From NCBI GenBank assembly GCA_045612565.1, contig JAZKZG010000094.1, positions 2,556-66,555 on the forward strand: 64,000 nt of DNA. The letters are read 5' to 3'. A model generated the notes under the pieces. That model ran no database searches. It saw only the letters and a list, made by a program, of their open reading frames with translations, and was not told where the DNA came from. The translations under genes and the position numbers were made by a program. Below are positions 5,987 to 24,582 of this stretch, piece after piece. Each line of letters starts with the position of its first letter. The first letter of the stretch is position 1. The DNA comes from Eubacteriales bacterium (GTDB taxonomy: Bacteria; Bacillota; Clostridia; Oscillospirales; QAKW01).

Positions 5987-8900
5987 ATGAAAAAACGAAT
6001 TTTAAGTTTTGTACTTGTTTTGGTAATGGCAATCGGATTTTTGCCAACCATTTCAATTGCCAATGCTACAACTTATGGTGATCTTACATATGAAATTTCA
6101 GATTACAATATTACAATTACCAAATATGTTGGAGAAGCGACAACAGTTGAAATCCCTGCCTCAATCGATGGCTATCCTGTGACATCAATTGGTAATAGTG
6201 CATTTTACGAATGTTCAAGCCTCACATCGATCACAATCCCCGATAGTGTGACATCAATTGGTGACGATGCATTCTCAGGTTGTACAAGCCTCACATCAAT
6301 CACAATTCCCGATAGCGTAACTTCAATCGGTGCTTATGCATTCAAATATTGTACAAAACTCACATCAATCACGCTCCCTGATACCGTAAACTCAATTGGT
6401 TGTGAAGCATTTTATGATACAGCATATTATAAAGATGAACAGAACTGGGAAATTGGGATTTTGTATATAGGTAAACATCTGATAGAAGCAAAAAAAGATA
6501 TATCAAGTGATTATCCTATAAAACAGAATACTCTTACAATAGCAGACAAAGCATTTTTTGATTGCGATTCCCTTGAATTAATCAGAATCCCTGATAGCGT
6601 AACTTCAATTGGTGATTCTGCATTTGCATATAGCGCTCTTACATCAATCACAATCCCTGATAGTGTGATTTCAATTGGTGATTCTGCATTTGTATGGTGT
6701 GAGAGAATTTCATCAGTCACAATGGGTGTGGGAGTTACCTCAATTGGACGAAGAGCATTTGGGGGATGTACAAGTCTAAAAAATGTATATATAAAAGATC
6801 TTTCAACTTGGTGTAAAATTGATTTTGAATATGATTCACAATATCAACAATATGCTTCGAATCCGTTATCTAATGGAGCATATCTTTATCTGAATGGTGA
6901 TATCGTAGAAAACTTGGTGATTCCATCTAATATATCATCAATCAATAATTATGCATTTTACGGTTGTGCAAGTTTCAAATCAATATCAATTCCGAATAAT
7001 ATTACTTCGATTGGTGATGATTCATTTGGATCTTGTTCTAATATTGAAAAAGTATACATAACCGACCTCTCTGCTTGGTGTAAAATTGATTTTAAAACCA
7101 GACAATCAAACCCGCTTTGTAATGGTTCTGATTTATATTTAGATGGTAACAAAATAACAAATCTTGTTATTCCATATAACATAACTTCAATTGGTGATTA
7201 TACATTCTATAATTGTGAAAGCCTCACATCAGTCACGATCTCTGATAGTGTAACTTCAATTGGTGAATATACATTTTATAATTGCGACAGCCTTGAATCA
7301 GTTACAATAGGAGATAGCGTAACCTCAATCGGTCTTGAGGCATTTTCTTATTGCGAAAGCCTTGAATCAATCACAATCCCTGATAGCGTAACATCAATCG
7401 GTGCTTATGCATTCTATTATTGTAAAAACCTCACATCAATCACAATTCCCGATAGCGTGACGTCAATCGGTGATTGGGGATTTTATAATTGCTTTAGCCT
7501 TGAATCAATTACAATCCCCGATAGCGTAACCTCAATCGGTAGTGGTGCATTTTGTCATTGCGAAAGTCTTACATCAGTCACAATAGGAGATAGCGTAACT
7601 TCAATCAGTGAGAAGGCATTTTATTATTGCGACAGCCTTGAATCAGTTACAATAGGAGATAGCGTAACATCAATCGGTGGTAATGCATTTTATCATTGCG
7701 ACAGCCTTACATCAATCACAATTCCCGATAGCGTAACCTCAATTGGTGAGAAGGCATTTTATTATTGCGAAAGTCTTACATCAATCACAATTCCCGATAG
7801 CGTAACATCAATCGGTGATAATGCATTTTATTATTGTAAAAGCCTTACATCAATCACAATACCCGATAGCGTAACCTCAATCGGTGGTGGTGCATTTTGT
7901 TATTGCGAAAGTCTTACATCAGTCACAATAGGAGATGGTGTAACATCAATCGGTAGTGATGCATTCCATGGTTGTACAAGCCTCACATCAATCACAATCC
8001 CTGACAGTGTAACCTCAATTGGTGATTATGCATTTTATTATTGCGAAAGTCTTACATCAATCACAATTCCCGATAGTGTGACATCAATTGGTGACGATGC
8101 ATTCAGTGCATGTACAAGCCTCACATCTATCACAATTCCTGATAGTGTGACATCAATTGGTGACTATGCATTCTCTACTTGTACAAGCCTCACATCAATC
8201 ACAATCCCCGATAGCGTAACCTCAATCGGTAAATGTGCGTTTTATAATTGTTTTAACCTCGAATCGGTTACAATTGGTAGAGGGGTAAAAAGAATAGGTG
8301 TTGATGCTTTTCTCGACTGTTTGGAACTTGAAAGTGTATACATTTCTGATATTAAGGCTTGGTGTGAAATTAGTTTTGAAATCAATAATATGTACTATTA
8401 TAGTTGCTATGCAAATCCGCTTTATCTGCAGCCCGATTTGTATTTAAATGGTTGCAAGGTGACTCATCTTGTTATTCCAAAAGGTGTAACGTCAATTATT
8501 GATTATGCATTTTATTGTTATGATAAATTTGAATCGGTTACAATTCCTAATAGTGTAACATCAATTGATTCTCATGCGTTTACAAATTGTGATTTAACAG
8601 ACATATATTATGAGGGTAGTGAAGAAAAGTACCAAAAACTTTCGGGCAGGCCATCTGCTACCAATATGCACTATGAATACATCTACAACCCGCCTGTGAC
8701 AAACAGCACAACAGGTGCAACATATGCATCACTTACCGAGGCACTAAACACCGCCAAATCGGGAGAAACAATCAGACTTTTGGCAGATGTTACCGAACAA
8801 ACGGTAATTGTATCATCGGGAGTGACTGTTGACCTTGGTGGTTATAACCTCACAGCAAATCACTTTATTGCGCTTAACGGCAGTAACGTATATGACAGCA

Positions 8901-11222: not shown

Positions 11223-11250
11223 AAAAACCGCAAGAAATACTTGCGGTTTT
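11223..11250. terminator. stem-loop terminator after the ABC importer operon
   Basis: AAAACCGCAAG-aaata-CTTGCGGTTTT, flanked by A/T runs on both strands. Confidence 0.65.
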
Positions 11251-11256
11251 ATATTG

Positions 11257-12063
11257 TTATTTAGATAGCATTACCTTGTCGCTGGTAAACTCACTTCCGC
11301 TTGCCTTTTCAAAAAGACCGAGAAGCTCCGCGATTGTGAGCTTTTTCTTTTCTTCACCTGAAACATCAACAACTACTCTGCCCTCGTGCATCATAATGAG
11401 GCGGTTGCCGTGCGCGATTGCATCGTGCATATTATGTGTAATCATAAGGGTGGTGAGTTTGTTTTCGGTGACGAGTTTGTCGGTGATTTCAAGCACTTTT
11501 GCCGCTGTTTTGGGGTCGAGTGCTGCGGTATGCTCGTCAAGAAGCAAAAGCTTTGGTTTTTTTAGAGTTGCCATAAGCAGCGTTACTGCCTGACGCTGAC
11601 CGCCCGACAAAAGTCCTACTTTTGCTGAAAGACGCGATTCAAGACCGAGTTCGAGTGTAGCGAGAAGTTTTTTATACGCCTCGCGCTCCTCTTTTCTTAT
11701 GCCCCACACAAGTTTACGCTTTGTGCCGCGGCGAGCCGCGATACCGAGATTTTCTGCAATCTCCATATCGGGTGAGGTGCCTTTCATCGGGTCCTGGAAC
11801 ACGCGTCCGAGGAACTGTGCGCGTTTGTATTCGGGCATATTTGTAACGTCAACGCCGTCAATTTCAATGGTGCCGTAATCGGGCTTCCACACACCTGCGA
11901 TAGCGTTTAGCATTGTTGATTTACCTGCGCCGTTACCGCCGATAACGGTTACAAAATCGCCGTCATTAAGTGTAAGATTAAGACCTGACAGCGCAGTTTT
12001 TGCATTTACTGTGCCGGGATTGAAAGTTTTTTGTAAGTTTGTGATTTTAAGCATTGTCGTCAC
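11257..12063 (-). CDS. ABC transporter ATP-binding protein (COG1101-like)
   Basis: Walker A GGNGAGKST, signature LSGGQRQ, Walker B LLLLDEHTAALD. Confidence 0.9.
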   Translation of the reverse strand: MTTMLKITNLQKTFNPGTVNAKTALSGLNLTLNDGDFVTVIGGNGAGKSTMLNAIAGVWKPDYGTIEIDGVDVTNMPEYKRAQFLGRVFQDPMKGTSPDMEIAENLGIAARRGTKRKLVWGIRKEEREAYKKLLATLELGLESRLSAKVGLLSGGQRQAVTLLMATLKKPKLLLLDEHTAALDPKTAAKVLEITDKLVTENKLTTLMITHNMHDAIAHGNRLIMMHEGRVVVDVSGEEKKKLTIAELLGLFEKASGSEFTSDKVMLSK

Positions 12064-12961
12064 CTCCGCAGTTTATGGGCAGTGGCTTTTGCTTTGTAAA
12101 ATATTTGCCCTTTAAATAGGGTACCGCAAGGAACAGTACAACTATTATTGCCGAGAGCATTTTGAGATAGTCGGTTTTGAGTCCCATCATTACAACAAGG
12201 CTGTAGATTATGTAGTACACAATTCCGCCGCTCACAACACCGATAAGGCTTACAACAAAGTTGGGCTTTATCTTGAGCGAAACCGAAAGACCGATAAAGA
12301 TTGCTGCAAGGCCGATAACAATTGCGCCTTTGCCGTCGTTGATGTTTGCAGAACCTTTGTACTGCGCAAGGAGTGCACCTGCAAATGCAACGATACCATT
12401 TGATATTGCAAGTCCGAGAACTTTGTTAAAATCAACGTTTACGCCTTGTGCGCGGCTCATATCGGGATTGTCACCTGTCGATTTGAGTGTAAGACCCACC
12501 TCGGTATAAAAGAACAGCCACAATACAACAATTGTTGCCGCGATTATAATTCCTGCCACAATAATTGCCATAAAATTGTCACTCATAGAGAGCATAAGTT
12601 TGTGTGTGCCGCCAACGAGTGAGGCAAGTGATTTACTGCCAAGAATTGCAAGGTTGACCGAATAGAGCATAAGCTGTGTCAAAATACCGGCAAGAATTGA
12701 CGGGATACCGAGTGCGGTATTGAGAAGTCCTGTAACAATACCCGCAAGTGCACCTGCCAAAAACGCAATAATAACACTTAACCACGCGGGAACACCGTTT
12801 ATTATAAGTACTGCGCAAACACATCCGCCGGTACAAATAGAGCCGTCAACGGTAAGGTCGGCAATATCAAGAATTTTGTAGGAGATATAGACACCGATTG
12901 CCATAAGTCCCCATATTAGACCCTCTGCTATCGCACCGGGTAATGCATTTAAAAAAGCCAT
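12047..12961 (-). CDS. ABC transporter permease (COG4120-like)
   Basis: 304 aa polytopic membrane protein. Overlaps the ATPase gene by 17 nt. Confidence 0.85.
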   Translation of the reverse strand: MAFLNALPGAIAEGLIWGLMAIGVYISYKILDIADLTVDGSICTGGCVCAVLIINGVPAWLSVIIAFLAGALAGIVTGLLNTALGIPSILAGILTQLMLYSVNLAILGSKSLASLVGGTHKLMLSMSDNFMAIIVAGIIIAATIVVLWLFFYTEVGLTLKSTGDNPDMSRAQGVNVDFNKVLGLAISNGIVAFAGALLAQYKGSANINDGKGAIVIGLAAIFIGLSVSLKIKPNFVVSLIGVVSGGIVYYIIYSLVVMMGLKTDYLKMLSAIIVVLFLAVPYLKGKYFTKQKPLPINCGGDDNA

Positions 12962-12981
12962 TGGTTTACCTCAAAAAATGA

Positions 12982-13911
12982 TTATTTGCTTTCGGGAACA
13001 GTTATACCGAGCTGAGCGCAAAGGTCAGCATTGTATGCAACTGAAGGAGTAAGTGTTTTAACTTCGAAATCAGCAGGAGTTTTGCCGTTTAAAAGAATTT
13101 CTGCAGCCATTTTACCTGTTTCGCGGCCGAGTTCTTCATAGTCGATTGCAAGTGAAGCATAGCAGATAGCGCCGCCGTAACTTGTGTATACAGGAACCTT
13201 TTTGCCGCTGCAGATTGTACCTACGATTGCGTCGTTGTCGGCAACAGTGTTGTCTGAAGGAACATAAACTGCCTTACATTCACCTGCCATTGCTGTAACG
13301 AGAGCCTGAAGTTCGGTTGTTTCCGAGAATGTATATGCCTTTACAACAATCTTCTTTTCTTCGAAAAGTTTTTTAACTGCTTCGTACTGGATAACTGAGT
13401 TTGACTCGTTTGTGCAATAGAGAACGCCCACCTGATCGCCTTCTTTAAGACCGAGTGACTCAATCATCATTTTTGCCTGTTCGTCAAAAGGAACAGCGTC
13501 TGATGTACCCGAAACGTTTGCGGGGATGTTACCTGCAAAGGTATCGTTGTAGTCGGTAACAGATGTGCCGAGAACGGGGATGGTTGTTGTGGCATTTGCT
13601 GCTGCAAGAAGTGCGGGAGTAGCGTTTGCCATAATAAGATCAACGTTCTTTGATGTGAAAGCCTTTACGATAGTTGTGCAAAGGTCTGCACCGCCTGCAA
13701 CCTGTGTATCGAACGTAACAGTCTTACCTGCTTTTTCGAGTTCTTCGGTGAGTGCTGCAATAAAGCCGTTTGTTGCTTTATCGAGTGATTCGTGTTCCAT
13801 AAGCTGACAGATACCAACGGTGAAGTCGGTCTTTTCGCCGCACGATGTAAGCGAAGCCATAAGGCATACGCACATAACCAAAATTGTGATAAGTGAAATA
13901 ATCTTTTTCAT
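12982..13911 (-). CDS. ABC transporter substrate-binding lipoprotein (COG2984 / ABC_sub_bind-like)
   Basis: Lipobox 'LMASLTSCGEK' after MKKIISLITILVMCVC. ATG at 13911 is preceded by GGAG; the ORF-track start at 13983 would lie inside the T-box. Confidence 0.85.
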   Translation of the reverse strand: MKKIISLITILVMCVCLMASLTSCGEKTDFTVGICQLMEHESLDKATNGFIAALTEELEKAGKTVTFDTQVAGGADLCTTIVKAFTSKNVDLIMANATPALLAAANATTTIPVLGTSVTDYNDTFAGNIPANVSGTSDAVPFDEQAKMMIESLGLKEGDQVGVLYCTNESNSVIQYEAVKKLFEEKKIVVKAYTFSETTELQALVTAMAGECKAVYVPSDNTVADNDAIVGTICSGKKVPVYTSYGGAICYASLAIDYEELGRETGKMAAEILLNGKTPADFEVKTLTPSVAYNADLCAQLGITVPESK

Positions 13912-13924
13912 ATTTTTTCTCCTT

Positions 13925-14205
13925 TTAAAATAAAAACGCACTGCATCAAAAGATGCAGGGACGATTATAAACCGTGTTACCACTCTGCTTTACTCTTTTT
14001 TCGCAAAAAGAGCCTCTTCGGGTGCACATTACACCCTTGCAATATAACGGTTGCAACCGATACAGCCTACGCAGTAAAAACCTTCAGCTAACAGCTAACA
14101 AAATGAATTCACCTGTCTTTGTGATACTGTTTTGCACCAACCAACAGTTCTCTGGATCACGACAAACGGGTTACTGATTTTTGCTCAAACGCTTTTAAAA
14201 TACTA
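13925..14205 (-). promoter_or_regulatory. T-box riboswitch leader, apparent UUC (Phe) specifier
   Basis: On the minus strand, Stem I shows UGAG/CAAAA...UUUUG, an AGUA S-turn, the AGAGA bulge and a GGUGCAA distal loop. The specifier loop reads 'GAA-UUC-A' (codon at 14105..14107). T-box sequence AGAGUGGUAACACGG is at 13972..13986. Terminator CCCTGCATC-tttt-GATGCAG plus a U-run is at 13932..13962. Confidence 0.8.
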
Positions 14206-14212
14206 TATGATT

Positions 14213-14241
14213 ATTTTATATAATGAAATGCTCTTTGTCAA
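14213..14241 (-). promoter_or_regulatory. sigma-A-type promoter for the T-box/ABC operon
   Basis: Minus strand TTGACA (14236..14241), 17 nt spacer, TAAAAT (14213..14218). Confidence 0.6.
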
Positions 14242-24365: not shown

Positions 24366-24371
24366 AATATT

Positions 24372-24582
24372 AAAGCTATGACGGAAAAGCCGTCTTTTAC
24401 ACCGCTTAAGAGAGAAAACGGTTGGTGCAAGTTTTCGCGGGGTAGGGGAAATCGGTACCGCTTCCCGAGCTGTGCCGCAAAATACGGCGCCGCGTGTTCG
24501 CGTTATGAACCAAAGAGTTAAACACCAAGGTGGAACCGTGTAATTTTTTGCACCCTTGACATTTGTCAACGGGTGCTTTTTA
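24372..24582 (+). promoter_or_regulatory. T-box riboswitch leader of thrS
   Basis: K-turn GCUAUGAC/CGAGC, AGAGAG bulge, GGUUGGUGCAAG distal loop. Candidate specifier ACC at 24457..24459. T-box AAGGUGGAACCGUG at 24527..24540. Terminator GCACCCTTGAC-attt-GTCAACGGGTGC plus TTTTT at 24550..24581. Confidence 0.85.

Follow-up and report, generated by a model that had tools for sequence, protein, structure and literature searches.

The window, as the whole stretch analysed here is called, is 64,000 nucleotides (nt) of contig JAZKZG010000094.1 from a Eubacteriales bacterium of the order Oscillospirales (assembly GCA_045612565.1), and the element under study is a T-box riboswitch on its minus strand together with the operon that follows it. 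The operon (11257..13911, minus strand) consists of three genes that abut or overlap, encoding the substrate-binding lipoprotein, permease and ATPase of an ATP-binding cassette (ABC) importer. Its first gene has a ribosome-binding site, AAGGAG at 13919..13924 (minus strand), 7 nt before the ATG at 13911, and upstream of this lie a terminator, an antiterminator, Stem I with its specifier loop, and a promoter. These features are given below in the direction of transcription, with positions counted from the first letter of the window.

14213..14241, minus strand: sigma-70-type promoter, TTGACA-17 nt-TAAAAT, 11 of 12 consensus positions in a promoter scan
13954..14198, minus strand: T-box leader, full-length match to RF00230 at 103.5 bits
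14083..14202, minus strand: Stem I, with K-turn region, specifier loop, AG bulge and distal loop, 121.3 bits with stem-I model R1
14172..14175, minus strand: AGUA, the 5' half of the specifier-loop S-turn, read from the sequence and aligned with the AGUA of the Rfam consensus
14149..14153, minus strand: AG bulge, AGAGA, read from the sequence
14108..14110, minus strand: GAA preceding the specifier, read from the sequence
14105..14107, minus strand: specifier triplet UUC (Phe), followed by A14104, in the specifier columns of the covariance-model alignment
14099..14103, minus strand: 3' strand of the basal helix, UUUUG, with its partner CAAAA at 14179..14183, placed by covariation
13979..13982, minus strand: T-box bulge UGGU, able to pair with the ACCA end of tRNA-Phe, read from the sequence
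13955..13988, minus strand: antiterminator, with helix A1 GCAGAG/CCCUGC, the 7-nt bulge UGGUAAC and helix A2 ACGGU/AUCGU, from the covariance-model alignment and the sequence
13927..13958, minus strand: intrinsic terminator, a 7-bp hairpin CUGCAUC-UUUU-GAUGCAG (13941..13958), then UGCG, then UUUUUAUUUU, from a terminator scan and the centroid fold
12982..13911, minus strand: substrate-binding lipoprotein of 309 aa, PF04392/TrpX family (PF04392 E = 1.9e-38), predicted to bind Phe
12047..12961, minus strand: ABC permease of 304 aa (PF02653 BPD_transp_2, E = 1.5e-29)
11257..12063, minus strand: ABC ATPase of 268 aa (PF00005, E = 1.3e-28), its gene overlapping that of the permease by 17 nt
11224..11250, no strand assigned: palindromic hairpin with an 11-bp stem flanked by A and T runs, from a terminator scan; operon-end terminator, able to act in both directions

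An Rfam scan with all families, applied to the whole window, matched the T-box family RF00230 at 13954..14198 (minus strand) over model positions 1-219 of 219, scoring 103.5 bits where the gathering score is 93 (E = 9.2e-22), and this was the one T-box match in the window above the gathering score. The Stem I landmarks AGUA, GAA-UUC-A, AGAGA and GGUUGGUGCAA all align with the RF00230 consensus, while AGAGUGGUAACACG is this leader's T-box sequence and contains the UGGU bulge. The leader is confirmed as a genuine T-box riboswitch and a member of RF00230, and the promoter lies about 15 nt upstream of its first model position. An earlier interpretation made from the letters of the DNA, here the sequence-only reading, had placed a minus-strand leader with T-box landmarks at these positions, upstream of a lipoprotein/permease/ATPase operon at 11257..13911; the Rfam match and inspection of the sequence bear out the first part, and correct coordinates with matching Pfam families bear out the second.

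The specifier was assigned by a structural rule, namely codon, one base, then basal helix, which was adopted because the columns of the model do not settle the matter by themselves: a fifth base pair in the genome's serS leader moves the codon by one column. The ortholog set comprised 80 loci encoding binding proteins 69-84% identical to that of the window, all of them in gut metagenome-assembled genomes of Oscillospirales and Clostridia. Twenty-one orthologous stem-I regions were aligned (alignment A1) and their pairs counted, and the covariance model built on this alignment (R1) was used both to search for leaders and to call specifiers. Among the 21 sequences, pairing in the basal helix (columns 23-27/108-112) reaches 99%, and three of the five pairs show compensatory changes, as in the variants CAAAA/UUUUG, CGGAA/UUCCG, UGGAA/UUCCA and UCAAA/UUUGA. 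Across the whole of Stem I, pairing holds in 88% of cells and 15 pairs vary in both partners, and sliding the partner by 1-3 columns lowers pairing from 88% to 30-52%. The register of the triplet is therefore fixed by covariation and not by eye. Furthermore, the Rfam covariance model sets the UUC of the window in the consensus columns where the genome's pheS leader also has UUC.

Of the 80 loci, 71 have a match to the stem-I model upstream of the binding-protein gene, and with the window included the specifier is UUC in every leader (72/72). The base that follows is A in 45 leaders, including that of the window, C in 26 and U in one. One subgroup carries an extra G (GAA-G-UUC-A), but UUC still adjoins the helix there and is invariant in both the GAA-UUC and the GAA-G-UUC subgroups. 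Read one base earlier, the triplet is AUU or GUU depending on the subgroup, and this frame was rejected because it is not conserved. The assignment of UUC (14105..14107) as a phenylalanine specifier by the sequence-only reading thus stands: the full-length Rfam match puts UUC, and no other triplet, in the specifier columns, and helix covariation, the comparison of orthologous leaders and the match to the tRNA end all agree with it. Downstream of the ABC operon at one ortholog locus lie two more stem-I-like matches, one after the other with about 80 nt between them (L050:6880-6997 and 7075-7191, plus strand); their triplets look like AUC and CUC, and the pair may be a tandem T-box.

The tRNA match comes from the other end of the leader. 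The bulge is UGGU in 70 of 70 orthologous leaders, and a tRNA ending in ACCA is therefore expected; tRNA-Phe(GAA) has precisely this 3' end in 11 related genomes. The tRNA-Phe of the genome itself is identical to those of its relatives over the 70 nt present before the contig end, where the sole detected gene (G000:C32:22893-22962) is cut 6 nt short of its 3' terminus and before the discriminator base; ARAGORN in circular mode joined this cut gene to the contig start. Genes for tRNA-Ile, -Tyr, -Trp, -Asn, -Cys and -Glu were not found in the assembly, which is 86% complete.

An internal control is provided by the seven other T-boxes of the genome. The same rule yields GUA for valS, UCA for serS, UUC for pheS, ACC for thrS, GCU for alaS and AUC for ileS, that is, the cognate amino acid in six of six synthetase leaders, and the pheS leader combines its UUC specifier with a UGGU bulge as the window leader does. 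The seventh, an ilvA leader, reads CUC (Leu) and offers no independent check. It is the strongest T-box of the genome (122 bits; G000:C165, or L001:1501-1748, minus strand) and precedes a threonine dehydratase (ilvA-like) gene, so its specifier is a leucine and not an isoleucine one. The thrS leader lies in the window itself, at 24369..24560 on the plus strand, with specifier ACC and bulge UGGA; at 80.5 bits it falls under the gathering score of 93.

The gene families of the operon are those of a TrpXYZ-type importer for aromatic amino acids, which the operon is accordingly predicted to encode. The N-terminus of the binding protein, MKKIISLITILVMCVCLMASLTS-C24, has a lipobox LTSC with Cys24 when read by eye. 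Its best NCBIfam match is the TrpX model NF041285, albeit at 176.6 bits against an equivalog cut-off of 390, and the protein is therefore a paralog and not TrpX itself, in agreement with a specifier that is not one for Trp and with a pocket residue described below. Three relatives have solved structures, 6HNI (E = 6.8e-37), 3LFT (E = 2.1e-30) and 3LKV (E = 4.7e-28), which are respectively CD0873 of Clostridioides difficile, SP1069 of Streptococcus pneumoniae and VC_1101 of Vibrio cholerae, crystallised with Tyr, Trp and Phe (PMC6816091). Two positions have been linked to selectivity in these binders and are, in the order CD0873/VC_1101/SP1069, Glu-263/Ala/Ala and Tyr-279/Tyr/Gln (PMC6816091). 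The blocks ATP, GTSD and PxDN, common to the three solved proteins, are retained in the window protein. At the column of CD0873 Glu-263, all 81 orthologs (81/81) have Tyr, so the residue expected of a tyrosine-type protein is absent. The column of VC_1101 Tyr-262 is likewise Tyr in the window protein, and that of VC_1101 Ala-246 is Tyr followed by a deletion of 3-4 residues, the gap of which is placed variously by pairwise alignments.

The meaning of these residues becomes clearer from sister leaders. The stem-I model was searched against 301 genomes of the same order at a threshold of at least 75 bits; with this model the orthologous leaders score at least 81.8 bits and unrelated T-boxes at most 57. 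Leaders of this type occur in 49 of the 301 genomes, a count that includes the UAC-specifier and non-importer leaders of the clade. Thirty-one of the matches were fetched and aligned to the model, and fall into four groups by specifier and downstream gene. In the first, UUC precedes binding proteins 48-77% identical to that of the window. In the second, UUC stands directly before genes for PaaK-like phenylacetate-CoA ligases, at nine loci in nine other Oscillospirales genomes (L112, L113, L114, L116, L120, L122, L125, L127 and L131); the ligase matches TIGR02155 at 519 bits, under the cut-off of 646. The third has UAC (Tyr) before paralogous PF04392 binding proteins that are 34-44% identical to the window protein (L124:667-1632 and L129:785-1750, both minus strand, and L132). 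In the fourth, UAC precedes PF00474 sodium:solute symporters of about 520 aa at seven loci (L118, L121, L123, L126, L128, L130 and L133), which predicts an uncharacterised symporter for tyrosine or a 4-hydroxyphenyl compound.

Specifier and pocket residue change together across these proteins. The three UAC-linked paralogs have Glu at the CD0873 Glu-263 column, where they align to CD0873 without gaps, and in CD0873 this residue binds the tyrosine hydroxyl (PMC6816091). From this residue they look like true tyrosine binders and form a contrast set for the Phe-type proteins. The UUC-linked proteins have Tyr at that column together with the 3-4-residue deletion, in 81/81 of the first set and 12/12 of those added later. 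Meanwhile, the Tyr-279 column is Tyr in all UUC- and UAC-linked proteins aligned and Gln in the Trp binder. Such joint change is as expected if the specifier reports the side chain that is transported.

The PaaK-like genes bring in a second gene family. Anaerobes are able to make phenylalanine by activating phenylacetate, which is then reductively carboxylated. If this route applies, the PaaK-like genes, unrelated to the importer, give the UUC leader a second tie to phenylalanine supply. The position of UUC leaders on these genes points to a use of phenylacetate under the control of tRNA-Phe, which might serve to make phenylalanine.

Taken as a whole, the leader is most probably a transcription-attenuating T-box that senses the charging of tRNA-Phe(GAA) and is placed on an importer most likely for L-phenylalanine, a reading to which a probability of roughly 0.8 is given. 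The antitermination response is inferred from the anatomy of the leader and the established behaviour of the T-box class. Transcription would start at the TTGACA/TAAAAT promoter, and Stem I would dock tRNA-Phe, its UUC specifier pairing with the GAA anticodon and its distal loop stacking on the tRNA elbow. With uncharged tRNA-Phe, the free ACCA would pair with UGGU and hold the antiterminator (13955..13988) closed, allowing read-through into the operon, whereas the end of charged tRNA-Phe would be unable to pair, and the hairpin at 13941..13958 with its U-run would form and stop transcription. Helix A1 of the antiterminator occupies 13955..13960, with its CCCUGC side; of these, 13955..13958 also belong to the terminator's 5' arm, and the two structures are therefore mutually exclusive. 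A shortage of phenylalanine would in this way raise uptake by the importer, the binding protein of which most likely takes up L-phenylalanine.

Several observations weigh slightly against this interpretation. The terminator stem of the window has only 7 bp, four nt of it shared with the antiterminator, and is weaker than in most orthologs, where terminators of this design are longer. Folding of the 3' region is no better than that of shuffled sequence (z = -1.1), and helix A1 contains an A.C mismatch adjoining the tRNA-binding bulge. At the position after the specifier, canonically a purine, 26 of 72 leaders have C and one has U. Nine of the 80 ortholog loci gave no stem-I match; two of these have too little upstream sequence, and in the seven with enough the all-family Rfam scan found no T-box, so that T-box control is common among the orthologs and not universal. 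The pocket is unlike that of VC_1101, the crystallised Phe binder, having Tyr for Ala plus the deletion, and the ligand is therefore deduced from the riboswitch and from the contrast with Tyr-type paralogs, not from a matching pocket. Finally, the genome encodes a prephenate dehydratase; uptake of phenylalanine is therefore not obligatory and would supplement synthesis rather than replace it, and phenylalanine auxotrophy was rejected as a rationale for the operon on the same ground.

As for the loci lacking a T-box, one of them (L080:3336-3423) has a tRNA gene immediately upstream of the gene for the binding protein; a 16S rRNA gene stands at the end of this locus.

The alternative that survives best, although it is unlikely, accepts that tRNA-Phe is sensed but has the importer take phenylpyruvate, phenylacetate, phenyllactate or aromatic amino acids broadly, and not L-phenylalanine specifically. 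The departure of the pocket from that of VC_1101 would fit such a ligand, as would the control of PaaK-like genes elsewhere by the same UUC clade, from which aryl-acid salvage appears to be part of the Phe regulon. However, free alpha-amino acids are the ligands of all three solved relatives (PMC6816091) and the window protein retains their ATP, GTSD and PxDN blocks, while the UAC-linked paralogs have the tyrosine-binding Glu of CD0873, an argument that specifiers in this clade follow amino-acid side chains.

Far less probable is a specifier read one base later, as UCA, UCC or UCU, by which the operon would answer to tRNA-Ser. Every base found after UUC does give a serine codon in this frame, and a C at the canonical purine position is unusual. 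The frame nonetheless requires that the following base be U14103, which is invariant and paired within the covarying helix, and going from UCA to UCC would call on a different isoacceptor. The tRNA ends are also at odds with it: all four tRNA-Ser genes of the genome (4/4) end in GCCA, to which the UGGC bulge of its serS leader corresponds, whereas the bulge is UGGU throughout the leaders of this operon. The serine frame was therefore rejected, and the transporter family, which binds aromatic amino acids, agrees with its rejection.

That the leader is a decaying or constitutive remnant which no longer regulates is very improbable as well, for although the short terminator stem, the poor folding of the 3' region and the A.C mismatch could be read as signs of decay, the mismatch is kept in 63 of about 70 orthologs (an A-U pair is restored in one), which makes it a trait of the clade, and the full-length Rfam score exceeds the gathering score with all landmark motifs, the promoter and the U-run intact. 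The mismatch may instead tune the switch.

The phenylalanine-responsive importer proposed here has its closest counterpart in TrpXYZ with its Trp T-box, known from Streptococcus suis and represented by SP1069 of S. pneumoniae (3LFT) and by NF041285. In S. suis, mutagenesis has been used to dissect the trpXYZ T-box with its UGG specifier (PMC9382623). Both systems combine a PF04392 lipoprotein, a PF02653 permease and an ABC ATPase with an upstream T-box, and they share the same logic, in which uncharged tRNA leads to uptake of the cognate aromatic amino acid. They differ in the specifier, which is UUC in the window and not UGG, in the bulge, UGGU and not UGGC, and in the pocket, where the window protein has Tyr in place of Gln-284 of the Trp binder. 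The best solved relative of the window protein is CD0873, a tyrosine-binding lipoprotein that likewise has Cys-24, belongs to the same fold family and has Tyr at the Tyr-279 column, but uses Glu-263 for the tyrosine hydroxyl where the window protein has Tyr and the deletion; the proteins most like CD0873 in this respect are the UAC-linked paralogs at L124, L129 and L132. The T-box regulon tables examined place CD0873 under no T-box. VC_1101, solved with phenylalanine, shares family and predicted ligand with the window protein as well as Tyr at its Tyr-262 column, but has Ala-246 without the 3-4-residue deletion. Of the solved relatives it is the most distant, and its host is a proteobacterium, a group for which no T-boxes were reported in the T-box surveys examined.

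Phenylalanine T-boxes are themselves established on other genes. One controls an NSS-family transporter in the Bacillus cereus group, where the specifier served to predict the transporter substrate (PMC2494555, Wels et al. 2008), and that study and the regulon tables of Sun 2013 list Phe T-boxes only on pheST, the NSS transporter and brnQ1, with trpXYZ under Trp only. The window leader shares its specifier amino acid with those on pheS/pheT and the NSS transporter, but the gene it regulates belongs to a TrpXYZ-family ABC importer. Targeted searches of the literature brought up no account of a Phe T-box in front of importers of this ABC family, although an earlier mention is possible. The window-type stem-I model did not match the pheS leader of the same genome at E <= 0.01, and the window leader therefore did not arise from it by recent copying. 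That T-boxes can change specificity after duplication is already known (PMC3766115).

A wider proposal can be made only tentatively, and as a joint statement it is improbable. It holds that one Oscillospirales leader clade has been redeployed, by single-base changes of the specifier between UUC and UAC, onto a small aromatic regulon, with UUC on a distinct Phe-type subfamily of TrpX-like proteins and on PaaK-like genes, and UAC on CD0873-like, Glu-bearing proteins and on sodium:solute symporters. The specifier would then label the pocket residues, Tyr plus deletion standing for Phe, Glu for Tyr and Gln for Trp, and the bacteria would make or salvage phenylalanine from phenylacetate under tRNA-Phe control. 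In its strongest form, the UUC-linked binding protein would take up an aryl-acid precursor and not phenylalanine.

The sequence-only reading had regarded the importer as one of an uncharacterised family whose substrates are mostly unknown, and in this it was mistaken, since the binding protein belongs to the PF04392/TrpX family, relatives have been solved with Tyr, Trp and Phe, and a trpXYZ T-box has been dissected (PMC9382623). Its substrate prediction holds to the extent that the UUC specifier does predict phenylalanine, but this is not a first clue to an unknown family; TrpX-family binders of aromatic amino acids were already known, and the prediction is therefore a refinement within a known importer family.

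The understanding of how T-boxes or TrpXYZ-type importers work is unchanged by these data. What they provide is a concrete predicted substrate, L-phenylalanine, for an ABC importer that is widespread in uncultured gut Oscillospirales and otherwise has only a generic annotation. For the TrpXYZ family, they extend the correspondence between specifier and pocket from Trp and Tyr to Phe, with a testable residue pattern for Phe, Tyr and a short deletion at the CD0873 Glu-263 position. The parts most worth following are this covariation and the PaaK link, for the control of phenylacetate-CoA ligase genes by UUC leaders hints at a balance between phenylalanine uptake and aryl-acid salvage in these bacteria.

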